Under the pieces are notes generated by a model. It made no database searches and was not told the DNA's origin. It worked only from the letters and a program-made list of their open reading frames with translations. Source: Treponemataceae bacterium (GTDB taxonomy: Bacteria; Spirochaetota; Spirochaetia; Treponematales; Rectinemataceae). Taken from it: a DNA stretch of 64,000 nt. Positions within the stretch are counted from its first letter, which is position 1, and each line of letters opens with the position of its first letter. The stretch covers positions 64,001-128,000 of the forward strand of contig CAXXVZ010000002.1 in the NCBI GenBank assembly GCA_963678065.2. Direction: 5' to 3'. Below, in pieces: positions 48,397 to 64,000 of this stretch. The translations under genes and the position numbers were made by a program.

Positions 48397-49258
48397 ACAT
48401 CGGATCATCGTAGACTGCGACAACACCTACGGCATCCCCGGGCTGCCGATCGACGATGGTCAAACGATAATGTACCTGGCCGGCCGCCCCGACATTGAAA
48501 TAGTGGGCATTACATGCACGCATGGGAATGGGCGGGTGGACGAAGTATTCGACGCCACACGATGGCTCGCCGGGGCATTGGGGCTGCATGATGTGCCTGT
48601 AATCAAAGGGGCTTCCGGCCCGGGAGACTATGATACCGAAGCCGCATCCTGGCTCGCGGGAAAAGCCAGAGCGGAGCCGGGGAAACTGGAACTGCTTGCG
48701 ATAGGGACAATGTCCAACCTGCTCGGCGCGAAGAAGAAAGATCCAGGTTTTTTCTCGAACATCGGGAATATTGCGGCGATGGGAGGCTACCTTTATCCCC
48801 TGCCGGTCCGCGGATGGAACAAGATCGAAGAGGTAAACCTTTCTCGCGATCCCGCTGCGACCGCCGCACTCCTCAGCGCCGAGTGTCCCGTCACTGTCAT
48901 GAGCGCCCAGATCTGCCTGCAGGCACCCTTCGGAATCGACGAGCTCTCCCCGATCGCCGAGAGCGACAGGGCATCCTACTTTTATATGCTGAGCTATCTG
49001 ATGGGCATGATCCGTCGCCACAACGGCGCCCAGGAGTACCTGTGGGACCTGCTTCCCGCGGTGTACATCTCCCACCCCGAGCTCTTCAACCGGAAGCAAG
49101 CGCGCATCTCGACGGATCTGCCGCATCTTTCAAAAGGCAATCTGGTGCCTGATGAAACAGGACCCGTGATAAACCTGCCCGACTACATCGCAGACGTCGA
49201 TTTGTTCTACGCGATCCTCTATGCGGCCTGGAAACGGGCGCCGCTCGTGTGTGTTTGA
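48386..49258 (+). CDS. Nucleoside hydrolase family protein (paralog 2)
   Basis: IVDCDNTYG..IDDG, IGTMSNL, MGG, EVNL, YLWDLLPAVY. Confidence 0.9.
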   Translation: MKPEHRIIVDCDNTYGIPGLPIDDGQTIMYLAGRPDIEIVGITCTHGNGRVDEVFDATRWLAGALGLHDVPVIKGASGPGDYDTEAASWLAGKARAEPGKLELLAIGTMSNLLGAKKKDPGFFSNIGNIAAMGGYLYPLPVRGWNKIEEVNLSRDPAATAALLSAECPVTVMSAQICLQAPFGIDELSPIAESDRASYFYMLSYLMGMIRRHNGAQEYLWDLLPAVYISHPELFNRKQARISTDLPHLSKGNLVPDETGPVINLPDYIADVDLFYAILYAAWKRAPLVCV

Positions 49259-49270
49259 AGGCAGGCAAGG

Positions 49271-50497
49271 ATGACACACAATCTGCGCTACGGAAACCGG
49301 GAGATCGTGGTCGATCTTCCCGACAATCAGACCGATATGATTTCCGCAGAACCGACTATTCATCGCGACGAATCACTGCTCGTTCTGGACGCCATAAACA
49401 AATCCTCCCCCATGCTCCAGGATTTTCTGGGTCAGAGTACCTCGGTAGTCATCGTGGTATCGGACCACACCCGCAATACGGGCAGCCGTACCTATATCCC
49501 TATTCTTCTGGATCAGATCAGGAAAACGGGACGGAAAATCACGATTCTTATCGCGCTCGGCCTGCACAGGCCCTCTACGGAGAGCGAAATTGCAGAAATT
49601 CTCGGCTGCGAACCCGGAAACGGTGTGGTTATCAGAAACCACGATCCTGATGCATATCTCGCAGAATGCGGCGAAGGGACGTTCTGCAAAACGGCGGTGG
49701 ATGCCGAGAAAATAATCCTCACCGGCTCCGTGGCTTTCCATCCGATGGCGGGTTATTCGGGCGGATGGAAAAGTCTTCTCCCGGGGATCGCTTCCCGCAC
49801 AAGTGTGATCGAAAATCACAGGCTCTACTTTTCCGGCAATACCATGAATTCCGGAGTCGGACCCGCACGTTTGGAGAATAATCCCATTTCATGCGATATA
49901 CGGCGCAGGACCCAAGGGTTCGCGGAGAAAACCTGGTGCCTGAATGTCGTCCAGAACGAAGCGAAATCGATAGTGTTCGCGGCGGCAGGCATCGTTGACG
50001 ACGCATGGAGAGCCTGCGCCGGTTATCTCGAACGGCGCAATTCACCAATGATCACGCGATTGTATCCGGTCGTCGTGGCTTCATCGGGAGGGTTCCCGTC
50101 GGATTTCAGTTTTTATCAGTCAATGAAGACCCTCACGAATGCCTCGCGCGCGTGCATCAAAGGAGGCAGCATCTATCTGCTCATGGAGTGCCGGAACGGC
50201 TGGGAACTGGATGAAAGCATTCTGGCTTTGAGACATCTGAAGCTGGAGGAGATCGCGTCGCAGGTGAGAAAAGAATTCTCCATGAGCGGTCTTGCGATGT
50301 ACATGGCCCTGTCGGTGATCAGGGCGCACAAGGTTTTCTGCCTGTCTTCCCTGCCGGAACGCGAGGTTAGCGGATTCGGCATGAAATATCTCGCATCGGA
50401 AGCCGAGATCAGGACTCTCGTCGACGCGGAGAACGCGGACCGGATTGCGGTCATACCTGCAGCTGCCGCCGTACTCCCCTCGCTCTACATCTGCTGA
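49271..50497 (+). CDS. LarA-family nickel-pincer 2-hydroxyacid racemase/epimerase
   Basis: VSDHTR, ALGLHR, NHD, FHPMAGYSGGWKS..PG, GGFPSD..YQSMK. Confidence 0.88.
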   Translation: MTHNLRYGNREIVVDLPDNQTDMISAEPTIHRDESLLVLDAINKSSPMLQDFLGQSTSVVIVVSDHTRNTGSRTYIPILLDQIRKTGRKITILIALGLHRPSTESEIAEILGCEPGNGVVIRNHDPDAYLAECGEGTFCKTAVDAEKIILTGSVAFHPMAGYSGGWKSLLPGIASRTSVIENHRLYFSGNTMNSGVGPARLENNPISCDIRRRTQGFAEKTWCLNVVQNEAKSIVFAAAGIVDDAWRACAGYLERRNSPMITRLYPVVVASSGGFPSDFSFYQSMKTLTNASRACIKGGSIYLLMECRNGWELDESILALRHLKLEEIASQVRKEFSMSGLAMYMALSVIRAHKVFCLSSLPEREVSGFGMKYLASEAEIRTLVDAENADRIAVIPAAAAVLPSLYIC

Positions 50498-50513
50498 CGG
50501 AAAGGGGACAAAA

Positions 50514-51593
50514 ATGCTCCACGCGGGCGTCGAAACGTATCAACGGGGATTTTCACTATTCGAAATGAAAATCCTTCTCAGAACCAACCGCAGTGAATTG
50601 ATCGCGGACGATGAGTATTTCCTGGGTGAAGGGTCTCATCTCCATTCCCTGCTCTCCAATTTCAACCGACTTGATGAAATCCCTGTTCCCGAAAGACCTG
50701 ATGTAGTCCTATCCATCGCCGATGTTCCCGGTTCCCCCTTCACCTTTGCCCAGACAGGAAATGGAGGGTATTCGATCACGGGAACGATTGTGGACTACGA
50801 GCGTTCCTGCATGGACAAACGGTCCAGCATCTTCGGAAACATGGGCCTCTTTTCGAAGCTGTTGGTACGGGAGCTGGAAGTCAGGGGGATCTACTCCATA
50901 CACTCCACTTCATTCTTCGATCGGATGCGGAACAGACTCTACGTCGTGATGGGAGGGTCAGGATCCGGCAAGAGCACGGTTTTGCTCAAAGCGATCTCCC
51001 TGGGCGGCATCGAGGTGTTCGGAACAGAGCTCACGCATTTTTCGTTCGGGGAAGGCAGGACAAAGATGCTCAAGGGTTCGCTGTGGCAGAACTGCAGGAT
51101 GGGGAATCTCATGATCGATTTCCCCGAACTTCTGGATCGTTTCGGTCTGGACTCCCCAAAGGGCGACCCCTGGCACAGCTACAAATCGGTCCCGCTCTTC
51201 TCCATTCAGGTTCCGGAGAATGTCCTCGATTCCGCTTCGATCGTGTTGGTGATGCCCCGCATCGAGGGAGAACGGAGTACCTCGAGCATACGTCAGGTGC
51301 CTGTGAGCTCGGTGCGGAATGTTCTCTTCCAGAACCTGTCCGATAAAGTCACCCCTCCCAGCCTCCTGTGGGGTAAGCATTTCATCCCGAGCCTCGACAG
51401 CCCGGATCGACAGACGGCGCGGATGGCTGCGGCCGAAAAGTTCATCAGCGAAGCTCCCGTCATCGAGTGCTGGAACGTGCTGTCCTCACCACATGAATGT
51501 CTGAACGGTATATTCCCCGCGCGGACCGGAAACGGCGCAGAAACGGAAAATCGAAACGAGCACATGAACGTGCAGGAGGTACTACATGAGTGA
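50514..51593 (+). CDS. Hypothetical P-loop protein, HprK/PEPCK-like putative kinase
   Basis: IHSTSF...VMGGSGSGKST...FGTE mirrors the H..GxSGxGKS..DD layout of HprK; start uncertain (alternative near 50564). Confidence 0.6.
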   Translation: MLHAGVETYQRGFSLFEMKILLRTNRSELIADDEYFLGEGSHLHSLLSNFNRLDEIPVPERPDVVLSIADVPGSPFTFAQTGNGGYSITGTIVDYERSCMDKRSSIFGNMGLFSKLLVRELEVRGIYSIHSTSFFDRMRNRLYVVMGGSGSGKSTVLLKAISLGGIEVFGTELTHFSFGEGRTKMLKGSLWQNCRMGNLMIDFPELLDRFGLDSPKGDPWHSYKSVPLFSIQVPENVLDSASIVLVMPRIEGERSTSSIRQVPVSSVRNVLFQNLSDKVTPPSLLWGKHFIPSLDSPDRQTARMAAAEKFISEAPVIECWNVLSSPHECLNGIFPARTGNGAETENRNEHMNVQEVLHE

Positions 51594-52407
51594 TTCGATA
51601 AAGAGAGGTATGGACGGTGTATATCCATTCCCGGTTTCGGGAAGAGAGAATCCGCCTCGCAGCACTGGACTTACCATGGTCATCGACATGGGCAGCGGAT
51701 TGATTGCCACGAAAGACTTGTTGGATTTCGCGGGGTATTGCATCGACATTTTCAAGCTTTCATCGGGAACGATGGCGCTCTATCCAGACGCGATCCTGCG
51801 CGAAAAAGTGGACCTCATAAAATCGCGCGGAATCGAAGTGGAGGCCGGCGGCTCTCATTTCGAAGTGGCGAACTGGAAAGGCATGAGCACGAAGTACTTC
51901 AAAAAGCTCGTCGAGATCGGGGTGGATGTCGTGGAAATCGCCGATGGCCATCTTCCGCTGGCTGACAGTGTGCGGATCGACAGGATCAAAGAGGCGAAGG
52001 ATCTGGGACTCAAGGTCGCGACTGAGGTCGGAAAGAAAGAACCATCGAAAAACATCAAGGCGCCGACCATACTGGAGCAGTATCGCGACAACATTGAAGC
52101 CGGAAGCGATTACGTCATCATAGAAGGCAAGGCTTCGGGGATGGATGTCGGCATCTTTGACGAAAAAGGGAACATCAACGAACAGGAGTTGACAGAGATC
52201 ACTGGCGGAATCTCCGACATGGGCAGGGTCATCTGGGAAGCTCCGTTGCGACCTCAGCAGCAGGCACTCATTCTCCGGTTCGGCCCCAATGTCAATCTCG
52301 GGAACATTTTCCCTCAGGAAGTGTATCCTCTCGAGCTGCTGAGAAATGCGCTCATGCTTTCTCCCCTCATCAATGCCTATAACAGGGAACAGGGGGCGGC
52401 AAAATGA
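51586..52407 (+). CDS. comA: Phosphosulfolactate synthase (ComA) family protein
   Basis: PRSTGLTMVIDMG, VEIADG, TEVGKK, IIEG, IWEAP..QQ, FGPNVNLGNI, LELLR. Confidence 0.88.
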   Translation: MSDSIKRGMDGVYPFPVSGRENPPRSTGLTMVIDMGSGLIATKDLLDFAGYCIDIFKLSSGTMALYPDAILREKVDLIKSRGIEVEAGGSHFEVANWKGMSTKYFKKLVEIGVDVVEIADGHLPLADSVRIDRIKEAKDLGLKVATEVGKKEPSKNIKAPTILEQYRDNIEAGSDYVIIEGKASGMDVGIFDEKGNINEQELTEITGGISDMGRVIWEAPLRPQQQALILRFGPNVNLGNIFPQEVYPLELLRNALMLSPLINAYNREQGAAK

Positions 52408-53237
52408 GGTTGACGGTGCCTGAACTGGAAAGCAAAGCCCGAGGACTGCGGATCGATACGATAAAGATGATCGCGCAAGCTGGGGGAGGACATCTGGGCG
52501 GGTCTCTGAGCGCGATGGATATCATGACGGCCCTCTATTTCAATGTACTGAGAATCGATCCTGCAGATCCGGAGAAACACGACAGGGACAGGTTCATCCT
52601 CTCGGCGGGCCACAAGGCCGCGGGATACGTCCCCGTGCTTGCGGAGCGCGGGTATTTTCCGAAGAACCTTCTGCCCACGTTCAACAAACTCGAAAGCCGT
52701 TTCGGGATGCACCCCGACAAGAACAAGATCCCCGGCTGCGACGCATCGACAGGGAGCTTGGGACACGGTCTCCCCGTCGGATTGGGAATGGCCCTCGCCC
52801 TGAGACTGGACGGGCTCGATAGCAAGGTGTTTGTCCTGCTCGGCGACGGCGAATTGCATGAGGGAACCAATTGGGAGGCGGCTATGGGAGCAGCCCAGCA
52901 CAAAGCGTCCAATCTCATCGCCATCGTAGACTACAACAAGTGTTCGATGGACGGGCCGATCGACCAGGTTGTCTCTCTCGAGCCTCTGGTGGACAAGTGG
53001 AAATCTTTCGGCTGGGACACGATCCGCATTGACGGGAACGATATGGCACAGGTGTTGGGAGCCTTGCAGGATGCGGCGGGCCGCGGTAAACGCGGGATCG
53101 GAACTCCTGCAGTGATCATCGCCGACACGATAAAGGGAAAGGGAGCGGCGTTCGCCGAGGGCGATTACCGTTGGCATTACGGCTGCCCCAGCGACGAACA
53201 GCTGGCCGAGTCAATCAAGGCACTGGGAGGCATCTGA
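52404..53237 (+). CDS. Transketolase, N-terminal (TPP-binding) subunit
   Basis: GHLGGSLS, DRFILSAGH, MHP, GSLGHG, GDGE..EG, TIKGKG, WH. Confidence 0.95.
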   Translation: MRLTVPELESKARGLRIDTIKMIAQAGGGHLGGSLSAMDIMTALYFNVLRIDPADPEKHDRDRFILSAGHKAAGYVPVLAERGYFPKNLLPTFNKLESRFGMHPDKNKIPGCDASTGSLGHGLPVGLGMALALRLDGLDSKVFVLLGDGELHEGTNWEAAMGAAQHKASNLIAIVDYNKCSMDGPIDQVVSLEPLVDKWKSFGWDTIRIDGNDMAQVLGALQDAAGRGKRGIGTPAVIIADTIKGKGAAFAEGDYRWHYGCPSDEQLAESIKALGGI

Positions 53238-53238
53238 A

Positions 53239-54204
53239 ATGGCTGGATTAAGCATGGCTGATATAGAAAAAATGTCCGCCCGGGATGCGTTCGGTCTCGC
53301 ACTCTCGGAAATCGGAGCGGAGAACGACAAAATCGTCCTACTGGGAGCGGATGCGATCGGAAGTACGCGCGCGGCCGGATTCGCGAAACGCTTCCCCGAT
53401 CGTACCTTCAATTTCGGCATCGCGGAGCAGGAGATGATTTCCGCCGCCGCCGGCTTTGCGGCCTGCGGCAAGATACCCGTAGCGACCGCGTATGGATTTC
53501 TGATTTCCCTCAGGGCCTGCGAGCAGGTGAGGTCGGACATCTGCTACCCCAAGCTGAACGTGAAACTCATGTCGACTCACACGGGTCTGTCGATGTCGGA
53601 GGCAGGGACGACCCATCATTCCACCGAGGACATCGCAATCATGCGCAGCTTCGCGAACATGACGATTGTCGCTCCCTCTGATTCCCTTGAAACAGTGAAG
53701 GCCGTCAAGGCCGTCATCGATTATCCGGGGCCCGTATATCTCCGGATGGGCCGCGGAGAAACTGAATCCGTGTACCAGGAGGATTACGAGTTCGTCATCG
53801 GGAAAGCTGTCTCTCTGCGCGAAGGCCGGGATGTCACGATAATCGCGTGCGGCATTATGGTAGCGGAAGCCCTGAAGGCGGCGGCAACGCTCTCGTCCGA
53901 GGGAATCTCCGTGAGGGTCCTGAACATGCACACGATAAAGCCTCTTGACGTCGAGGCAGTCCTGCTCGCGGCGAAAGAAACGAAAGCCATCGTGACCGCC
54001 GAGGAGCATACGATAATCGGCGGATTGGGCGAGGCCGTCGCCGGGGTAGTCTGCGAAAATACGCCTGTGCCTGTCGTCAAGGTCGGATTGAATGACTGCT
54101 TCGGAATCATCGGACCGGAAGACGGCGTCAAACAGAAACTGGGGCTGAATGCGGAGGCGATATGCCGCTCCGTAAAAAAAGCGATCCTGCTCAAGGCTGT
54201 GTGA
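53239..54204 (+). CDS. Transketolase, C-terminal subunit
   Basis: FGIAEQ, RACEQVR, GTTHHSTED, TIKPLD, EEH..GGLG. Confidence 0.95.
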   Translation: MAGLSMADIEKMSARDAFGLALSEIGAENDKIVLLGADAIGSTRAAGFAKRFPDRTFNFGIAEQEMISAAAGFAACGKIPVATAYGFLISLRACEQVRSDICYPKLNVKLMSTHTGLSMSEAGTTHHSTEDIAIMRSFANMTIVAPSDSLETVKAVKAVIDYPGPVYLRMGRGETESVYQEDYEFVIGKAVSLREGRDVTIIACGIMVAEALKAAATLSSEGISVRVLNMHTIKPLDVEAVLLAAKETKAIVTAEEHTIIGGLGEAVAGVVCENTPVPVVKVGLNDCFGIIGPEDGVKQKLGLNAEAICRSVKKAILLKAV

Positions 54205-54219
54205 GCGAAGAGGTGCGGA

Positions 54220-56058
54220 ATGGTCGGCGGATATTGGCTGAAGGCGTTGAGGGTTGATCTTGATCGGGGCGAGGTGCGCGACGAAAACCTGGATGAGAAC
54301 CTGGCAAAAGCCTGCATAGGAGGGGCCGGATTCGCCTCATACTTCCTTCTTCGCGAGGTCGGCAGGGATGTGGATGCCCGGTCTCCGTCCAACCTGCTCG
54401 CATTCGCGACCGGTCCTTTCCAGGCGATGAAAATTCCCGGCGCTGCCAAGTTTTCCATTTGCACACGATCGCCGCTTACAGGAACATTTACAGACTCCGC
54501 CGCGGGGGGAGAATTCGGTTTTGCATTGAAACGAACGGGCTATGATCTCATCCTTGTTTCAGGCAGGAGCCGGGAACCGGTATACCTCCATGTGACCGAT
54601 GGTACGGCGGAAATCCTGCCAGCCGCAGATCTGTGGGGCAAGGATTCTGTCGAGACATCCGAGATCCTGTCGGGCAGACACGGTGGAGCTTCTGTCGCGG
54701 CGATAGGTGCCGCAGGAGAAAACGGCATCGCGATGTCGTGCGTGTATGTCGACAGGTACTCCGCCGCAGGAAGGGGGGGAACCGGATGCGTCATGGGATC
54801 CAAGCAATTGAAGGCAGTAGTGCTTTCCGGAAACCTGGATCCGCCGGTCTCCGATAAAACGAAAGTCGCGGCATACGAAAAGCGGTTCAGGAAATCGATC
54901 GCCGAGACGGCTGCAGGATTCCGTGAAGGGGGGACGGTAGGCGGCCTCGCTCCGGGCGAGGAATCCGGAAATCTGCCCTTGCGCAACTGGAGTCAGGTAG
55001 GATGGAAGGAAGGTGCCGCGAAGATCGGATACCCGGGATATTCCTCGTTGCACAACACCTTGCACCCCTGCAAATATTGCACGCTCTCGTGCCACAGGCG
55101 GTCGGATGTCTCTTTCCCTGACGGGTATTCGTACAAGGGTCCTGCGCCTGAATACGAAACCTTGGCGATGCTTGGCTCGTGCTGCCTTATCGACGATCTT
55201 GAATCGCTCGTGAAGGCGAACGATGCGTGCAATCGTGCGGGCCTTGATACTATGAGCGCTGGTGGCTGCGCGGCCTTCGCGATGGAGGCGCTGGAGAAAG
55301 GGCACACAAATGGGTTCTTCCCGTCCTATGAACTCTCATGGGGTAATGGCGCGGGCTTGCTCGAGTTCATAGGAGAACTGATCGGGCGCAGGGGATTCGG
55401 AGGACTGTTTTCGGATGGAATCGTCGTGGCCGCTTCAAAATTCCTTCCCGAGGCCTCCCGCTACGCGCATCACGTGAAAGGACAGGACATACCGGCGCAC
55501 GATCCCCGCGTCTACTATAACCTCGGCTTGTCCTATGCCACGGGAAACCGCGGCGCCTGTCACATGCGCGCATATTCACAGATTTCCACTATGGGGGCCC
55601 TGTTGCCCGAGGTCGGCATCGATGTCGCGCCGGCGCCCGACACCCTGGAAGGCGCCGCTTTTGTCGTCAAAACCTATCAGGATTTCACGGCATTCTACAA
55701 TTCCTGCGTGCTGTGCCAGTTCATGATATGGGGCGGTCTCAGCTTGGGCGACATGACGGATTGTCTGAACGCGGTTACCGGATGGCAGATGACTCCGCGC
55801 GATGTGATGGAGTGCGGCGAGAGGGTTTTCACCGTACAGAGGGAGCTGAACAATATCTGGGGCTTTTCCAGAAAAGACGACAAATTGCCCGAGCGGTTTT
55901 TCGCGGCTTCTTCATCGGGGCCCCGGGCGGGCAAAGCGCCTGATCGGGATCGCTTTGCCGCCGAGCTGGCAGAGTTGTATCGTCTCCGCGGCTGGGACGA
56001 GGACGGCATCGTCAGAAACGAGACACTTATACGGCTCGGGGTAGACAAATGGATATAG
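54220..56058 (+). CDS. Aldehyde:ferredoxin oxidoreductase family (W/Mo-pterin)
   Basis: SPLTG, IGAAGE, AAGRGG.G.VMGSK.LKA, CxxCxxxC, PEYET, HDPR, CQF, RGWD. Confidence 0.94.
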   Translation: MVGGYWLKALRVDLDRGEVRDENLDENLAKACIGGAGFASYFLLREVGRDVDARSPSNLLAFATGPFQAMKIPGAAKFSICTRSPLTGTFTDSAAGGEFGFALKRTGYDLILVSGRSREPVYLHVTDGTAEILPAADLWGKDSVETSEILSGRHGGASVAAIGAAGENGIAMSCVYVDRYSAAGRGGTGCVMGSKQLKAVVLSGNLDPPVSDKTKVAAYEKRFRKSIAETAAGFREGGTVGGLAPGEESGNLPLRNWSQVGWKEGAAKIGYPGYSSLHNTLHPCKYCTLSCHRRSDVSFPDGYSYKGPAPEYETLAMLGSCCLIDDLESLVKANDACNRAGLDTMSAGGCAAFAMEALEKGHTNGFFPSYELSWGNGAGLLEFIGELIGRRGFGGLFSDGIVVAASKFLPEASRYAHHVKGQDIPAHDPRVYYNLGLSYATGNRGACHMRAYSQISTMGALLPEVGIDVAPAPDTLEGAAFVVKTYQDFTAFYNSCVLCQFMIWGGLSLGDMTDCLNAVTGWQMTPRDVMECGERVFTVQRELNNIWGFSRKDDKLPERFFAASSSGPRAGKAPDRDRFAAELAELYRLRGWDEDGIVRNETLIRLGVDKWI

Positions 56059-56888
56059 GAGTTCATGTCTCGCTGTGGACTCCCGAATGGGCCAGCCCTT
56101 TCCTGGATGCGCTCGACGCGGCGGCGGATCTCGGATGCACCTGTGTGGAAATCCCGCTCATGGATCCTTTCAATTTCCCTCTGGAAGATATTGAACGCCG
56201 GCTCTCGAAGAATGACCTGAAAGTCTATTGCGGTACGGGGTTGGGCAAAGATACCGACATCGGAAGCGTTTCCGCTACGGTGAGGGAGCGAGGAGTCCGG
56301 CACCTGAGCGAATGTTTGCGAATCTGCGCCGATCTGGGAAGCGACTCCCTCGGAGGCGTCTTGCATTCTCCGTGGGGAATGAGGGGGCCGGTCGATTCCG
56401 GATATGCTCAGCGTGTGGCAGCATCGCTCGGATACGTGGCAGACAAGGCGGCCGAATCCGGAATCGGCATCGCGCTGGAGTGCATAAACCGATACGAGAA
56501 CTCCTTCGTGAACACTGTCGATCAGGGGCTGTCGCTGCTGCGGATCATCGGCCGAGAGAATGTTGGCCTGCATCTGGACACCTATCACATGAACATCGAG
56601 GAGCACGGGATCGTACCCGCAATAGCCGAGGCGGGAAAGACAATCCTGCGGATGCACTTGAGTGAGAACACCAGGGGGTATCCCGGAAGCGGCTCGCTTC
56701 CCTGGAAAGAAATTCTCGCCGCAGCCCAAAAGGCAGGGTACCGGGGACCATGGATCATAGAAAGCTATGTATGCCCGGATTTCCCGGCGTCCGCCGATGT
56801 GTGCGTGTGGAGACCGATCGAGCCCGATATGTCCGCGAGTCTGCGGAAATCACTGGAGTTTCTCGGAGGGCTTATTGCAGCAGACTGA
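56049..56888 (+). CDS. Ketose 3-epimerase (D-psicose/D-tagatose 3-epimerase family)
   Basis: VEIP, ECINRYE, HLDTYHMNIEE, HLSENTRGYPGSG, IES, VWR. Confidence 0.88.
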   Translation: MDIGVHVSLWTPEWASPFLDALDAAADLGCTCVEIPLMDPFNFPLEDIERRLSKNDLKVYCGTGLGKDTDIGSVSATVRERGVRHLSECLRICADLGSDSLGGVLHSPWGMRGPVDSGYAQRVAASLGYVADKAAESGIGIALECINRYENSFVNTVDQGLSLLRIIGRENVGLHLDTYHMNIEEHGIVPAIAEAGKTILRMHLSENTRGYPGSGSLPWKEILAAAQKAGYRGPWIIESYVCPDFPASADVCVWRPIEPDMSASLRKSLEFLGGLIAAD

Positions 56889-56923
56889 GAATCGCGGAAT
56901 AGATGTAGCAGATCAGGGGACCT

Positions 56924-57628
56924 TCAGGTCTGTGGCCGGGGGGTATTCCTGATCTGTTTTTTTTCCCGGAAGACCGACAAGATGTTTTCTTCGCTCAGCA
57001 GAATGTGCGAGCGGAACGCTTTCTCGTATTTTTCCTGTTCTCCTGAAGCGAGAGCTTCTATCAGCTCCCTGTGCATCATGGACATGTATGTGTCGGAGAA
57101 CTCGAAATAATGGATCATGCGGAAAAGAACGTGCATCTGTGACGCGATGTCCTTCCATGCCTTCACGAGACGCTGGTTGTCCGATTTCTGAATGATGAAC
57201 AGATGGAATTCAATGTCCAGATCCGATAATTCGGCGTAGTTGTATGATTTCTCCGACGCGACGATCTTGTCGAGAATCGAGTTGAGAGTGACAAAATCAT
57301 TTTCCGTCAAATTCCCGTGGGCAAGGCGGACTCCAAGCACTTCGAGGCTCGCCCGCAGTGTCACCAGCTCGTTGATATCCTTCTCTGTGAAATCGATGAC
57401 CGATATGCCCCGCCGCGCTTTGAACAGTATGAGTCCTTCCTGGGCCAGTTCCCGTATCGCTTCGCGCACAGGTGTCTTGCTGATGGCCATCTGGGTGGAT
57501 ATCGCCTGTTCGACCAGCTTGGTCCCAGGGGGAAGTTGGCCGTTTAAAATCGCTTCCCGAAGGTTGCTGTACGCGATTTTATACAGAGGCGAGTTCAGCG
57601 ATTCCTTTATCTTGAGTTCGTGATGCAT
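56924..57628 (-). CDS. GntR-family regulator (FCD domain)
   Basis: LPPGTKLVE, SKTPVREAI, RASLE, DIEFH, H..LIEAL; convergent on the operon end. Confidence 0.93.
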   Translation of the reverse strand: MHHELKIKESLNSPLYKIAYSNLREAILNGQLPPGTKLVEQAISTQMAISKTPVREAIRELAQEGLILFKARRGISVIDFTEKDINELVTLRASLEVLGVRLAHGNLTENDFVTLNSILDKIVASEKSYNYAELSDLDIEFHLFIIQKSDNQRLVKAWKDIASQMHVLFRMIHYFEFSDTYMSMMHRELIEALASGEQEKYEKAFRSHILLSEENILSVFREKKQIRNTPRPQT

Positions 57629-57745
57629 CGAGTAACTCCAGATAGACTCTTGGACAGCACTTGAATCAGTGTAAGGCGCGTACTACATAATCCATCGGTT
57701 CAGTGCCATATGTCAATTCCTCATAATCGGGTCATAGCCCATTGT

Positions 57746-59000
<1,255 letters not shown>

Positions 59001-59020
<20 letters not shown>

Positions 59021-61592
59021 CGCTTTCCTCCATAAGTTTCCGCGCGCCGGCTTCCGTGCCGGCGACAATCCAGGCCGCCACGAGGCGGGCGTAGACGCTT
59101 TCCGTCGAGAGAGCTCCCATGGGAACCGCCCCCTCTTTCCATAATTCGTGGGCCGTGATGTAGCCCGAGAAGTCGACGATACCTTCCTGCTGACTCGTGC
59201 AGTAGAACATGACGCCCTTTTCGCGGCCTTGCCGCAAGGCCTCTTTCAGCGAGTAGGGCGACGATCCGACGGCGGCCGTCCCGGTGTCGTAGAGCTCGAG
59301 GATGAAGTTGCGGCAGCCCGAGGCCATGAGTGCCGTCACGATCTCGCCGCGCATGCCGGGAAAGATCCTGAGGATCATGGCGCTCTTCGCCGCGGCCTCG
59401 GCCCGGGCCAGGATGGACTGGGCATCGAGCCCCGCGAGGGCCTCCGCGACTACCGAGGCCGGGAAGGGTCCGGGCAGTTTCGCGCCCGAGGCTATGAGTT
59501 CGCCATTCCAGGTGCCGAAGCCAGCCTCCTCCACGCGCAGGAATTTGAGGTTGACGGGGTCGAAGGCCATGCCGTCCACCATGACGGCGACGCTTCCGGG
59601 CTCATTGCCAGCGCCCGCGGCGCCATGTGCGATGGCAGTGCCATTTGCAATGGCGGCGCGCAGGGCGGGCCCGAGCATGGCGGCGGCCTCGCGACTGTCG
59701 GCCGGGGCGCGGGTGGAAGCCGCGAGCACGATACGTTTGCCGAAGTCGCCGAAGAGCCACTGCACGAGGGGAGCCGTGTAGGCGAGTGTGTCCGTGCCGT
59801 GGGCGACGACGAGGCCGTCGGCCGAATCCCCCGCCGTCTTGCGCGCGAGGGCTTCGATGAGCCTGGCCCACTCCACCGGCGAGACTTCCTCGGAGAGGAA
59901 GGAGCCGACGACTTCCGCAGTAACGCCGATATCGGGCAGGGCCTTTTCCGAGACGGAGGCGGCGTCCCGTCCGGCCCTGTCGGCCGCGAGCATGTTCCTG
60001 AGATCTTCCGCCTCGCCGGGCACGACGAGGCCGCCCTCGGTCCTGCCCGTGATCGCTCCGCCGAAGGCGACGAGGTCGACCCGCCTCGAGGCGAATCGCT
60101 TCTCGACCATGGACCTGACGAGCTTCGGGTCGGCACGGCCGCCCGTCGCCGAGAGGGCTTTGCCCACGAGGTAGCCGAGGATCTTCGCGTCTCCCGAGGC
60201 CGCGGAGGCGACGGCGGCCGGATCGGCGGCGAATGCCTCGTCGATGGCCGCGGACACGGTGGCCGGATCGGTTATCTGGCCCCATCCCTTGGACTCGACG
60301 ATCGCGGCGGGATCATCGTCCTTTGCAAAAACGAGCTCGAGGACCTGCTTCGCGATCTTTCCGGAAATCCGCCCCTCTTCGATCATGACGACGAGGGAGG
60401 CCAGGCGCGCGGGAGTCAGGCGCATCGACAGGACCGACTCGGGCGCGATGCCGTCGCGGTTCATGATGCGCTTCACGTCGGAGGACATCCAGGCGACGAG
60501 ACGCTCGGGCGCCACGGACAGGCCCGAAACACGGACCGGGCCGCCGGCGGCAACTCCGGCGCTGGATACGGAGCCTGCGGCTGCCGGAGCCGGGGCCAGG
60601 CACCCGGCTGTCGCCTCGAAATAATCCGCGAGTGCCTTCTCCTCGCAGAGCCAGTTGGCCTGAGCCTCGGAGAGCCCGTACTGGGCGGCCAGCCGCTTCT
60701 CGCGCGGCTGCGGCAGCTCGACGAGGCCCGCGTCGACCGAGGCGAGGAACTTTGCGTCGGGTGTAAAGACGGGAAGGTCGGGCTCGGGGAAGTAGCGGTA
60801 ATCGTTCGCGCTCTCCTTGGAGCGCATCGACTCGGTCTGGTCGCGGTTCTCGTTCCACAGCCGCGTTTCCTGGCGGATCGTCCCGCCCTTGTCGAGAATG
60901 CCACTCTGGCGCTCGATCTCGTAGTTGAGGGCGAGGCGCACAAAGCGCGAGGAGTTGAGGTTCTTGATCTCGACCTTTTTTCCGAGGCCCTGGCCGCGCA
61001 GGTTGATCGAGACGTTGGCGTCGCAGCGCATGGAACCCTCTTCCATGTTGCCGTCGCAGACGCCGAGGTAGCGCACGGTGCGCCTGAGTTGCTGCAGGAA
61101 GAGCTCCGCTTCCTCGCCGATCTCGAGGTCGGGCTCGGTGACAATTTCGAGGAGGGAGACGCCCGCGCGGTTGTAGTCCAGGAGCGAGGTGTCGCCCGCG
61201 TGGATCATCTTGCCCGCATCCTCTTCGAGGTGACATTCCTTGATGCGGATCTTCTTTTTATTGCGCCGGAACTCGAGCTCTATTTCGCCGTTCACGCCCA
61301 GCGGCGAGGCGAACTGGGAGATCTGGTAGTTCTTGGGCATGTCCGGATAGAAGTACTGCTTGCGTTCGAACCATGTGACGGGCGAGAGAGTGCAGCCGAG
61401 GGCCCGCGCGACGAGCGAGCCCATGCGCATCGCCTCGATGTTGAGGGCGGGCAGGACGCCGGGGTAACCCATGCAGACAGGACAGATATTGCTGTTCGGC
61501 TCGTCGCCGAAGGAGGAGCGGCAGCCGCAGAAGACCTTGGATTTCGTGAGAAGGTGTATGTGGATCTCAAGTCCGACGAATGACTGGTACAT
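59001..61592 (-). CDS. gatB: Asp/Glu-tRNA amidotransferase subunit B fused to C-terminal asparaginase-like domain
   Basis: GLEIH, YFYPD.PK.YQISQ, HLEEDAGK, EGSMRCDANVS, DYRYFPEPDLP, YqeY tail; then FGGAIT, HGTDTLAY, IFPG. Confidence 0.93.
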
Positions 61593-61595
61593 GGC

Positions 61596-63101
61596 TTAGC
61601 TCCAGAAGGCGCGGTAACCCGCAGGCCGGGCGATGGGGTGGGCCGCCTCGTATGCGGCCGAGATGCCGAAGAGGAGGTCCTCGCGGAAGGCAGGGGCCAT
61701 GACCTGGACGCCCACGGGCAGCCCGTCCTCCACTGTGCCGGGAAACGACAGCGCCGGAAGTCCCGCGAGATTGGCCGCGCAGGTGAACTTGTCGGCCGCC
61801 TTCTGCTGGTACTGCGTGAGTTCGCCCTCGCCGCGCGCCCAGGACGGGACTGGGAAGACGGGCATGAGGAGGGCATCGCAGCTGCCGAATACGCGGGCGA
61901 AGTCATTCCGGATGGCCGTCCGCACCTTCTGGGCGCGGATGTAGTAGCGGTCCTGGAAGCCCGAGCGGAGCACGAAGGTCCCGAGGAGAATGCGGAGCTT
62001 CACTTCCGGCCCGAAACCAGCCTCGCGGGACATTTCGACGAGACTGTCCGGGTTTTCTGCGCCCGGGGCCCGCACGCCGTAGCGGATACCGTTGTAGCGG
62101 GCGAGATTCGCGCTCGCCTCGGCAGTGGCGATCGTGTAGTAGGCGGGGACGACGTACTCGAGGGTCGGAAGGGTCACGTCGACGAGTTCGTAGCCGAGTG
62201 CAGCGAGGCGCCTCCTGACCGTCGCGTAGCCGCGCCCGACGGCCGGGTCGAGCTCGCCGGGGGCGACTGCGAGGACACCAACCCTGGGTTTGCGACTGAC
62301 GCCTTCCCGCGAGGCGACGGGCGCGGCGGCCGTGCCGGCATCGACAGACATGCCGATGTCGCCGGCGCCTCTGGCGGGCGGATTCCTCGAGGTCTGGTCC
62401 ATGGGATCTTCGCCGCGCATCACCTCGAAGACAGCCTTGACCCGCGCGGTGCTGTCGCCGACGACACCGATCGTCTCAAGACTCGAGGCGTAGGCGACGA
62501 GGCCGAAGCGCGAAACCGCGCCGTAGGTGGGCTTGAGTCCGACGACGCCGCAGAAGGATGCCGGCTGGCGGACCGAGCCGCCGGTATCCGAACCGAGGGC
62601 GAAGGGCACGAGCCCTGCGGCTACGGCGGCGGCCGAGCCGCCCGAAGAGCCGCCGGGCACCCTTCCCGCGGCCCAGGGATTGTCGGTGAGCTGGTAGGCG
62701 GAGTTGTCTGTCGAGGAGCCCATGCCGAACTCGTCGAGGTTTGTCTTTCCGGTCACGAAGGCTCCGGCCGCCTCGATTCTGCCGACCGCGGTCGCGGTGT
62801 AGGGCGAGACGAAGCCCTCGAGAATCTTCGATCCGCAGGTGAGACCGAGGCCCTTCACGGCGATGTTATCCTTCACGGCGAAGGGAAGACCCGCGAGAAC
62901 TCCGCCGCCGCGCGCTTCCCTGACCGCCGCCTCTCCCGGATTGGATGCGCGGGCGGGGGCAAACTCGAGGAAGGACCTGATCCGCTCCTCCCATCCGGCG
63001 AAATACTCGCCAAAACCTCGTGGAAAACCGCTAAAATCCCGAGCATCTGTCGGTCCGGGTCCGGAACCGCGCTCTATATCGGGCTTTGTGCTCATGACCA
63101 T
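61596..63101 (-). CDS. gatA: Asp/Glu-tRNA amidotransferase subunit A
   Basis: AVKDNI, GKTNLDEFGMGSS, PGGSSGGSAAAV, GSDTGGSVRQPA. Confidence 0.96.
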   Translation of the reverse strand: MVMSTKPDIERGSGPGPTDARDFSGFPRGFGEYFAGWEERIRSFLEFAPARASNPGEAAVREARGGGVLAGLPFAVKDNIAVKGLGLTCGSKILEGFVSPYTATAVGRIEAAGAFVTGKTNLDEFGMGSSTDNSAYQLTDNPWAAGRVPGGSSGGSAAAVAAGLVPFALGSDTGGSVRQPASFCGVVGLKPTYGAVSRFGLVAYASSLETIGVVGDSTARVKAVFEVMRGEDPMDQTSRNPPARGAGDIGMSVDAGTAAAPVASREGVSRKPRVGVLAVAPGELDPAVGRGYATVRRRLAALGYELVDVTLPTLEYVVPAYYTIATAEASANLARYNGIRYGVRAPGAENPDSLVEMSREAGFGPEVKLRILLGTFVLRSGFQDRYYIRAQKVRTAIRNDFARVFGSCDALLMPVFPVPSWARGEGELTQYQQKAADKFTCAANLAGLPALSFPGTVEDGLPVGVQVMAPAFREDLLFGISAAYEAAHPIARPAGYRAFWS

Positions 63102-63240
63102 GCTCCTTTTTTGGACCTGCCGGCGACGGGAAATGCCTTCCGCGCCCCGGCCGGCTTCAACGGGATCGGCCCAGGGATTTCCCCGGGCATCCCTTCCCCG
63201 ACCTGCAATCCGCAGATGGGGCTACGCTGACTGGGTGGGA

Positions 63241-63534
63241 TTACAGGACGTTGGGAATGGCGATGAAGCGCTCTTCGCGCTCCGGGGCCATTCCCAGAAG
63301 ATTATTGGCGAGATTGGAGGGATTATTGGTGTCGGGCCTGACCCGGTTTTCGGAGGCGAGGGCGTGGACGGTGGGTTCGAGATGGTCTACATCGAGGAGA
63401 CTCATGCGGGAGAAGTTTTCCAGCATGGCCTCGAATGAGGGGGCGGCCGCAGCGAGCTCCGATTCGGTGACCGGAAGCCGGGCGAGACGCGCGGTGATGA
63501 CGAGGTCTTCTTGCAGCATGGAAGAGATTTGCAT
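63241..63534 (-). CDS. gatC: Asp/Glu-tRNA amidotransferase subunit C
   Basis: TARLARL, VDHLEPT, RPD, AP...FIAIPNVL; start may be ATG 63519. Confidence 0.9.
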   Translation of the reverse strand: MQISSMLQEDLVITARLARLPVTESELAAAAPSFEAMLENFSRMSLLDVDHLEPTVHALASENRVRPDTNNPSNLANNLLGMAPEREERFIAIPNVL

Positions 63535-63606
63535 ATTCCTTATACAAGTGTCAAGAATATTTATGCGAGGCGGACCGGAAAGCGTCGCCTTCCACCTCTC
63601 CGGACC

Positions 63607-64000
63607 TCATCCCAGCTCAAAGCTCGTGACGCCGAAAATCCGCTCCGCCCGCAGATCGGGCACGGAGCCTGTGTACATTCTCGCAGTCTCGAAGACCTTC
63701 TCGAGCCCGAGATCGCGCGCAATCGCGAGGGCGGCCACATTCGTTTCGGGAACATCCAGAAACCAGAGCGGGTCCCTGATCTCCCCGAGAAGCGAGGTCA
63801 GGATGGCGAGAGCGCATTCCCGGTCATCCGCGAAGAGCGGGCCGACCTTCCAGCCTTCCCTGCAGGGCCTGATCGCTCCGAAGCCCCTGATGGCCGACGA
63901 CTCCTTGCCTGAGGCGTGATCTCTCCCTGAAGGGAGACTCCCCCCTGCCCCGGAAAACCTGTCCGCAGCGGGTGCGGCGACAAGCGCCCGGGCTATCGTC
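63607..64000 (-). CDS. GNAT-family acetyltransferase, C-terminal part (enters from window end)
   Basis: Manual translation: ...GFGAIRPCREGWKVGPLFAD...LDVPETN...FETARMY...IFGVTSFELG-stop. Confidence 0.85.
   Translation of the reverse strand, partial: TIARALVAAPAADRFSGAGGSLPSGRDHASGKESSAIRGFGAIRPCREGWKVGPLFADDRECALAILTSLLGEIRDPLWFLDVPETNVAALAIARDLGLEKVFETARMYTGSVPDLRAERIFGVTSFELG

Follow-up and report, generated by a model that had tools for sequence, protein, structure and literature searches.

A GatB protein carrying a putative asparaginase-fold pseudo-enzyme domain in a Treponemataceae bacterium and other spirochaetes

The fusion gene and its operon

We analyzed a stretch of 64,000 nucleotides from a Treponemataceae bacterium (assembly GCA_963678065.2, contig CAXXVZ010000002.1, positions 64,001 to 128,000; hereafter the window), in which the gene for GatB, a subunit of the tRNA-dependent amidotransferase GatCAB, runs on into an asparaginase-like sequence. 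The fused gene (gatB::asparaginase-like, protein P0001) occupies positions 59001..61592 of the reverse strand as a single open frame of 863 amino acids and lies in an operon ordered gatC-gatA-gatB fusion-aspS2, all on the same strand. Amino acids 1–500 form an intact GatB and amino acids 503–856 an asparaginase fold that starts at about nucleotide 60086, bearing out an earlier note on this DNA, which had described a frame continuing past a complete GatB into a region with asparaginase motifs. Pfam placed GatB_N at 5–281, GatB_Yqey at 362–499, Asparaginase at 505–648 (E 1e-15), and Asparaginase_C at 740–840 (E 3e-9), and all the motifs quoted in the note were found: FGGAIT (510–515), HGTDTLAY (598–605), IFPG (743–746), and STESVYARL (829–837). 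The note had also singled out the junction for a check in the reads. Single contigs from runs X2, X5, and X6, which belong to three studies, span the junction at about 60086 without an indel there, and the contig of X2, possibly the source sample, matches the fusion gene exactly. The fusion is real and not an assembly artefact. In run X6, a 33-base in-frame insertion was present at window positions 59612–59625, in a low-confidence loop near amino acids 656–660. Contigs of the RNA run X17 covered parts of gatB and not the domain; being contig data only, they are uninformative on expression. The AlphaFold model of the fusion, built on a 147-row alignment, had a mean predicted local distance difference test (pLDDT) score of 83.8 and a predicted template modelling (pTM) score of 0.69. 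In this model the domain folds with confidence, though containing low-confidence insertions, and the last YqeY helix (489–500) continues directly into the first strand of the domain (504–510), with no linker between them. Folded from its own sequence alone, the domain reached an AlphaFold pLDDT of 34, and that model was set aside.

The asparaginase-fold pseudo-enzyme domain (amino acids 503–856, positions 59025..60086; PF00710 and PF17763) was compared with known asparaginases by VIA-align and hhalign. The two-lobe asparaginase fold was confirmed among the fold matches (Z 26–28.5, root mean square deviation (rmsd) about 3, about 300 residues aligned), with 7cbr_A giving Z 28.5, rmsd 3.0, and 296 aligned residues, and hhalign matched the domain to standalone asparaginases at 100% (E 2.5e-55). 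Residues were counted by column in a 147-row alignment, to which all counts out of 147 refer. The position of the nucleophilic Thr is taken by Ala513 (GGA for GGT, positions 60054..60056), and this column holds Ala in 140, Ser in 4, and Thr in 3 of the 147 proteins, compared with Thr in 31 of 31 unfused comparison proteins. The earlier note had seen this Thr-to-Ala change and proposed that its conservation be examined; the change is both confirmed and widely conserved, but by reporting one missing catalytic Thr the note undercounted the damage, as the triad Lys is gone too. In the pair Lys683-Phe684 (positions 59541..59546), L-INS-i and hhalign put Phe684 in the catalytic-lysine column (Phe in 141 and Tyr in 6 proteins) and Lys683 in the basic column preceding it (Lys 125, Arg 21, His 1), an assignment that rests on sequence alignment with closer intact relatives rather than on residue-level structural alignment. 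We considered Lys683 as the triad lysine, as suggested by a gapped HMMER alignment, and rejected it on account of the gap-free register and of the Lys/Arg/His variation at this position.

Several other residues of the pocket are retained. In Ser567-Glu568-Glu569 (positions 59886..59894), Ser567 occupies the column of the asparaginase serine by which the alpha-carboxyl group is anchored, and both Ser567 and Glu568 are present in 147/147 proteins. The His598-Gly-Thr600-Asp601-Thr602 motif (positions 59787..59801) contains the substrate-binding aspartate, Asp601 (147/147), and Thr600 (145/147). The C-terminal lobe carries the motifs YDTGT (768–772) and CTSQQ (798–802) together with Tyr811 (positions 59160..59291), and Gly599, Thr602, Gly771, Thr772, Cys798, Ser800, Gln801, Gln802, Asp807, and Tyr811 are invariant in all 147 proteins. 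In asparaginases, the loops that match these C-terminal-lobe motifs complete the site of the partner subunit, and the motifs probably form the dimer contact. When 1.84 billion representatives were searched with a profile, seven deeper fusions were obtained, whose Thr600 column holds Leu (6) or Ala (1) and whose 513 column holds Ala in 6/7; the Ser567, Glu568, and Asp601 columns are kept in 7/7, and the Cys798 column is Ala in 2/7. According to a passage of PMC6667453, Ser58 of asparaginase anchors the alpha-carboxyl group, and substrate binding depends critically on Asp90, in which it differs from Lys162. In the domain, equivalents of the catalytic Thr12/14 and Lys162/163 are absent (TIGR00519 79.4 vs 260.5), and the substrate anchors Ser58/60 and Asp90/92 have their equivalents in Ser567 and Asp601. 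Judged by its sequence, the domain has lost the catalytic residues and kept the substrate-binding ones. Three Protein Data Bank (PDB) entries among the fold matches are titled 'T13A with L-asn' (7c8x), 'Asn-bound T19A' (5dnc), and 'Asn-bound K188M' (5dne). Because such Thr-to-Ala and Lys-to-Met mutants were deposited as Asn complexes, the natural losses of Thr and Lys resemble engineered substrate traps.

By every test run, the protein is also a member of the GatB family, scoring above the cut-offs of NF004012 (563.6 vs 338 bits) and TIGR00133 (488.5 vs 314.8). Its 104 near-full-length homologues (16 partial rows having been set aside) comprise 65 with a normal GatB (group A, 69–100% identity to that of the window) and 39 with a divergent one (group B, 36–42%). 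The catalytic cradle domain (amino acids 5–281, positions 60750..61580; PF02934, E 2e-108) retains His11, Glu123/124, Glu149, Asp191, Glu208, and the Asn182-Met183-Glu184 turn, as judged by alignment to 3h0l_B and by column counts. The metal ligands of the kinase pocket, His11, Glu123/124, and Glu149, are those of 3h0l_B and are invariant in 33/33 group A rows; they correspond to the metal-binding His/Glu/Glu of S. aureus GatB. In a part of PMC2330236, the metal-binding pocket of GatE is described as formed by His15, Glu157, and Glu184, and mutation of the equivalent His and Glu in GatE as abolishing activity. Asn182-Met183-Glu184 matches the 3-10 turn for the U1-A72 pair described in a section of PMC2811023, which also reports that the YqeY tail of S. 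aureus GatB binds the D-loop of the tRNA. The corresponding helical/YqeY tail of the fusion (PF02637; model) spans amino acids 362–499 (positions 60096..60509). It is preceded by a lineage-specific Ala/Gly-rich insertion in the helical domain (approximately amino acids 334–360, positions 60513..60593) that appears as an alignment gap in about 62 of the 65 group A and in all 39 group B proteins and has a pLDDT below 50 at 338–356. The cradle, helical, and YqeY domains are common to the fusion and to the GatB of bacterial GatCAB and the Asn-transamidosome (T. thermophilus 3KFU, A. aeolicus 3H0L, S. aureus 3IP4), and the GatB half superposes on 3h0l_B with Z 39.3, rmsd 4.0, and 405 aligned residues, with catalytic residues and 3-10 turn alike. 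In contrast, none of six PDB GatB sequences (325–483 amino acids) has the 354-residue asparaginase-fold domain after the tail.

Next to the fusion, gatA (positions 61596..63101; PF01425, E 5e-126) encodes an amidase subunit that keeps the Ser-cisSer-Lys triad in a motif check (Lys77, Ser152, and Ser176), so that the intact GatA reported in the earlier note is indeed there. The N-terminus of this GatA is short and divergent, and the protein carries internal insertions. Its TIGR00132 score of 475.5 bits falls 5.6 bits short of the cut-off of 481.1, and many GatA proteins of this operon type likewise score just under it. The gatC gene (positions 63241..63534) scores 49.3 bits with TIGR00135 (cut-off 47.1). 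On the other side lies aspS2 (positions 57746..59020), which encodes a short archaeal-type aspartyl-tRNA synthetase of the non-discriminating kind (ND-AspRS; TIGR00458 383.8, cut-off 368.4; NF003483 502, cut-off 353); its ATG at 59020, preceded by GGAGG, overlaps the end of gatB. In window positions 49000–64000, T-boxes and all other Rfam elements stayed below gathering score, and promoter and terminator scans gave matches at chance level.

Descent and distribution of the fused domain

The nearest intact relatives of the domain are standalone asparaginases of about 350–390 amino acids that have GGT and HGTDT and share the SE, LELYxSGT, and SQQ motifs with the domain. In a quick tree of 55 rows, made with no approximately unbiased (AU) test and with row P0239 labelled intact unchecked, the 24 fused domains fall on one side of a branch (SH-aLRT 100) and the 7 GatD rows are separate (99). 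The domains fused to the catalytically altered GatBs described below (dead-GatB) nest in this tree among those fused to intact GatBs. The term GatD-like used in the earlier note therefore describes a resemblance and not descent. The resemblance includes the best PDB sequence match of the domain, GatD 1zq1 (E 2e-19), and, as in the GatD of archaeal GatDE (P. abyssi 1ZQ1, M. thermautotrophicus 2D6F), an asparaginase fold goes together with a GatB/GatE kinase and the Ser-Glu motif and TSQ are shared. Unlike GatD, the fusion domain lacks the N-terminal barrel (no PF18195 domain; TIGR02153 80.8 vs 324), the nucleophilic Thr, and the triad Lys, and it is fused to the C-terminus of GatB, with an intact GatA encoded alongside. 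Type I-like L-asparaginases (E. coli AnsA and the Pyrococcus/Thermococcus enzymes) have the two-lobe fold and the pocket Ser, Asp, and Tyr in common with the domain, but they and the standalone proteins P0256–P0278 keep GGT and HGTDT, whereas the fusion domain has lost Thr and Lys. By the residues that define these enzymes, the protein is neither a GatD nor an active asparaginase.

Some unfused relatives deserve mention in their own right. The standalone subfamily P0256–P0278 and related matches have the GatD-type Ser-Glu motif, and P0264, P0268, P0269, and P0280 appear without the triad lysine in the alignment. At L007:1474-2010 (G000:C3, ~1859971-1860504), an asparaginase of about 170 amino acids consists of the N-terminal lobe only, with intact GGT and HGTDT, and is followed by a TetR-like gene. 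Genome G401, from the family of the host, encodes at L038:8642-10840 an archaeal-type GatD with intact GGT, HGTDT, and N-terminal barrel; it adjoins a GatB/GatE-family match in a genome that also has a glutaminyl-tRNA synthetase (GlnRS). GatDE is described as archaeal in a portion of PMC2330236.

A search with the domain gave 407 matches among 8000 candidates. The combination of GatB and asparaginase that the earlier note had proposed to search for recurs widely, since the best 120 of these 407 matches all carry the domain, most of them in full-length GatB fusions; where a source name among these 120 includes a taxon, it is a spirochaete. The best 80 loci in GTDB all have Spirochaetota titles, and GatB is fused in 77/77 of those in which it is in view, the other 3 being cut by contig ends. 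The shorter domain matches, which were not checked singly, established no stand-alone form, as most of them come from short contigs or bear the label partial. The distribution is patchy: the domain occurs in 22 of 150 other genomes of the host's order and in 17 of 151 genomes of a class-wide sample centred on G280, and it was not found in 41 other genomes of the host's family. In 13 operons of close relatives, GatB is unfused and the operon otherwise kept. Among intact-type fused loci with enough flanking sequence, gatA lies upstream in 23/23 and the ND-AspRS gene downstream in 24/24. Databases label these proteins GatB or 'asparaginase domain-containing', and we found no description of a GatB-asparaginase fusion in the open-access literature, supplements not covered. 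Both types occur in cultured bacteria, the intact one in Alkalispirochaeta alkalica DSM 8900 (locus L168) and the dead one in Breznakiella homolactica (P0046).

At 53 of the 77 fused loci, the domain is carried by a GatB whose metal ligands are changed to Arg or Lys and that has no adjoining gatA or aspS2. The pocket changes in this dead-GatB group, counted over 23 rows, are H11R (22, with Arg or Lys at position 11 in 23/23), deletion of Lys78 (23), H121R (23), E149R (22), D191N (22), and E208K (23). The turn for U1-A72 is altered as well; the four N-terminal cysteines and the YqeY tail are kept. With enough flank in view, gatA adjoins in 0/43 and ND-AspRS in 0/44 of the dead-type loci. An MGH1-like glycoside hydrolase gene adjoins the fusion in 22/23 intact-type and 37/43 dead-type loci; in the genome studied here, the operon is not beside such a gene. 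Because both types lie beside the same hydrolase gene, the dead type likely formed on the spot, when gatC, gatA, and aspS2 were lost. Two decaying dead-GatB fusions were seen in family f2: L035 (G100) is split into three frames, and L034 (G286) has both GGA and HGTDT altered.

We surveyed 22 genomes with a dead-type fusion; 17 have gatA and a normal gatB elsewhere, and 5 showed neither of these, nor an ND-AspRS, with AsnA present in 4 of the 5. The strongest case is G265, a one-contig genome with GlnRS, asparaginyl-tRNA synthetase (AsnRS), and AsnA, although 16,000 of its bases are masked; in G310, GlnRS is split across contig ends. The other three (G253, G337, and G367; loci L032, L042, and L043) are drafts, 90–99% complete, in which only the dead-GatB fusion was present and GlnRS, gatA, and normal gatB were not found. 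As they lack a GlnRS match, these assemblies must be missing some Gln-tRNA route. Altogether, the dead type is likely independent of transamidation. The three drafts prompted us to consider the dead-GatB fusion as a one-chain amidotransferase, which we rejected because both active sites are altered and which is less likely than assembly gaps. Another possibility, which we consider improbable, is that the fusions perform new chemistry on aminoacyl-tRNA. It would fit the dead-GatB copies, which are conserved although they stand alone and whose basic pocket is remodelled in a consistent way, and the invariance of Cys798, Thr772, and Gln802; it is at odds with the location of the domain at the tail, which binds the tRNA elbow and is away from the acceptor end, with the Ala that replaces Cys798 in two of the seven deeper fusions, and with the nature of the asparaginase pocket, which grips a free alpha-carboxyl group, esterified in aminoacyl-tRNA.

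The loss of catalytic residues bears directly on the alternative raised in the earlier note, a second amide-donor site, at which the domain would hydrolyse Gln or Asn like GatD and feed ammonia to GatB. GatD requires a Thr nucleophile and a Thr-Lys-Asp triad, as stated in a portion of PMC2330236. The match to GatD 1zq1 and the retained Thr600 and Asp601 speak for such a site, as would Lys683 if the gapped alignment were followed and the three genomes with only the dead-GatB fusion, which showed neither GlnRS nor gatA. Against it, the Thr is Ala, the gap-free register has Phe in the Lys column, position 683 is Arg or His in 22/147 proteins, the deeper fusions lack Thr600, an intact GatA adjoins in 23/23 intact-GatB loci with upstream room, and the three genomes are incomplete drafts. 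The losses of Thr and Lys, the deeper loss of Thr600, and the intact GatA thus make a second ammonia donor very unlikely.

Asparagine supply in the host and a possible role of the domain

To place the operon in its metabolic context, we looked at the gene content of the host genome (99.94% complete, 6.7% contamination). Bacterial AspRS, AsnRS, glutamyl-tRNA synthetase (GluRS), and GlnRS were all over cut-off, there was no match to the asparagine synthetases AsnA and AsnB in this nearly complete genome, a separate small asparaginase has an intact GGT, and the tRNA-Asn has U1-A72. This is the same arrangement as in Thermus/Deinococcus, where, according to a part of PMC4206432, a second AspRS and GatCAB make asparagine on tRNA. 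The likeness to the GatCAB transamidosome extends to gatC, gatA, and aspS2 in one operon. Given that neither AsnA nor AsnB was detected, the ND-AspRS and GatCAB operon is likely the asparagine route of the host.

The reading that we favor, and to which we give about an even chance, is that of an amino-acid-binding, probably dimerising pseudo-enzyme domain that gates how the GatB tail binds tRNA. In this organism, GatA would supply ammonia to the intact GatB; the domain would bind, but not cleave, asparagine or a close amino acid and would pair with a second copy; and binding and pairing would change the grip of the tail on tRNA. At high levels of free asparagine, with AsnRS able to charge tRNA(Asn) directly, the dead domain would brake asparagine synthesis by GatCAB. 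Such a feedback brake would resemble the action of HisZ on HisG. HisZ, an inactive HisRS paralogue, likewise joins an enzyme that is dead and specific for the end-product amino acid to the biosynthetic enzyme for that same amino acid, and an excerpt of PMC9437257 states that it mediates allosteric inhibition by His. Unlike the fusion domain, HisZ is a separate subunit of unrelated fold, and feedback is established for HisZ and only proposed for the fusion. This reading is favored by the loss of catalytic and retention of binding residues, which extends to the deeper fusions, by the Asn complexes of comparable engineered mutants, by the mostly synonymous strain differences in the domain, and by the Thermus/Deinococcus-like gene set of the host. 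The direct joining of the domain to the YqeY tail argues for tRNA gating, as do the tail kept and the basic residues fixed in the pocket of the dead-GatB fusions. At the level of the family, an amino-acid-gated tRNA binder would be the conserved unit, which would therefore outlive transamidation in the dead-GatB group, where the same gating would persist for another purpose. The earlier note had preferred an inactive Asn/Gln-sensing or oligomerising module that regulates the Asn-transamidosome with the adjacent AspRS. This interpretation is partly supported: its first half fits the pattern of lost catalytic and kept binding residues, and its second half is not the whole story, given the 53/77 loci on dead GatB without gatA or aspS2 and the operons of relatives that lack the domain.

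A number of observations weigh against gating by asparagine as the function of the domain. A brake on the sole asparagine route is less useful than one on a spare route, and simple feedback on GatCAB leaves the dead-GatB copies in genomes without detected gatA unexplained. The invariant pocket residues could instead be held for folding. AsnRS was over cut-off in 38/39 other genomes with the domain, as the proposed brake would require, but also in 7/8 genomes without it, so its presence does not discriminate. Matches to AsnA or AsnB were present in 25/39 genomes with the domain compared with 0/8 hand-picked unfused genomes of four genera; within families, the figures for AsnA with and without the domain are 8/15 vs 4/25 in f4 and 5/6 vs 27/35 in f2, from related genomes that are not independent. 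The gene-content support for asparagine feedback, including the link to AsnA, is weak. All 13 unfused GatBs group with that of the window (SH-aLRT 97) in a quick tree of 72 rows that carries a long-branch warning for the dead-GatB group, so that the operon is kept without the domain. Finally, the copy in the window departs from the consensus at 15/108 conserved columns, compared with a median of 3, and has the unfused-type residues Ser410, Ile471, and Leu480. The positions that track the domain and are not kept in unfused kin (His410, Gln439, Pro471, Met480, and Thr483) are mostly in the helical/tail region. The departures from consensus and the unfused-type residues suggest that constraint may be relaxing in this copy.

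These departures, together with the low-confidence insertions, also suit a decaying relic, that is, a domain useful in an ancestor and drifting out of this lineage, as do its repeated loss among close kin, the failure to find it in the 41 other genomes of the host's family, and the degenerate or frameshifted f2 copies L034 and L035. We regard this explanation as distinctly improbable: strain differences in the domain are 18 synonymous and 4 non-synonymous among the 22 listed (11 more over the gene fall outside this list), all pocket and lobe invariants are intact in the window's copy, and the predicted fold is confident. Selection acts on the domain of the window, yet this copy drifts more than most others.

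A possible though less probable explanation than tRNA gating is that the domain is a scaffold only, which would dimerise like asparaginases and hold two GatCAB, or two dead GatBs, around tRNA and the AspRS dimer, the ligand of the pocket being irrelevant. The invariant C-terminal-lobe motifs, the concentration of domain-associated conserved positions in the helical/tail region of GatB, the want of a clean link to asparagine synthetases, and the precedent of GatDE, whose alpha2beta2 tetramer has a homodimer of GatD as its base (a section of PMC2330236), are all compatible with it. On the other hand, unfused kin keep the same operon, and Ser567, Glu568, and Asp601 are fixed even in the deeper group lacking Thr600, a pattern suggestive of selection for ligand binding in the pocket.

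A bolder form of the gating proposal, which we put forward only tentatively, is that the family is an asparagine-gated tRNA-binding sensor made from two retired enzymes, first a feedback module of GatCAB and then stand-alone in many treponemes. The stand-alone protein would consist of a dead GatB with its basic pocket, the YqeY tail, and the dead asparaginase; it would read free asparagine and the charging state of tRNA, and its target would be translation or a partner, transamidation playing no part. If true, bacteria would have an amino-acid/tRNA sensor of a type that we did not find in the open-access literature. How cells with both Asn-tRNA routes choose between them is the question on which PMC4206432 closes, and a dead asparaginase on the GatB tail is a direct candidate for a protein-level feedback making this choice, for which the fused, unfused, and dead-GatB versions provide natural controls. 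The doubly dead version, mislabelled GatB or asparaginase, can mislead metabolic reconstructions of treponemes.

Window positions 49271–57628 hold a cluster encoding LarA-family and ComA-family (PF02679) proteins, two transketolase-like subunits, an aldehyde ferredoxin oxidoreductase, a xylose-isomerase-like barrel, and a GntR/FCD regulator. The GC content at third codon positions of this cluster is 0.66–0.72, compared with 0.82–0.87 for gatA, gatB, and aspS2.

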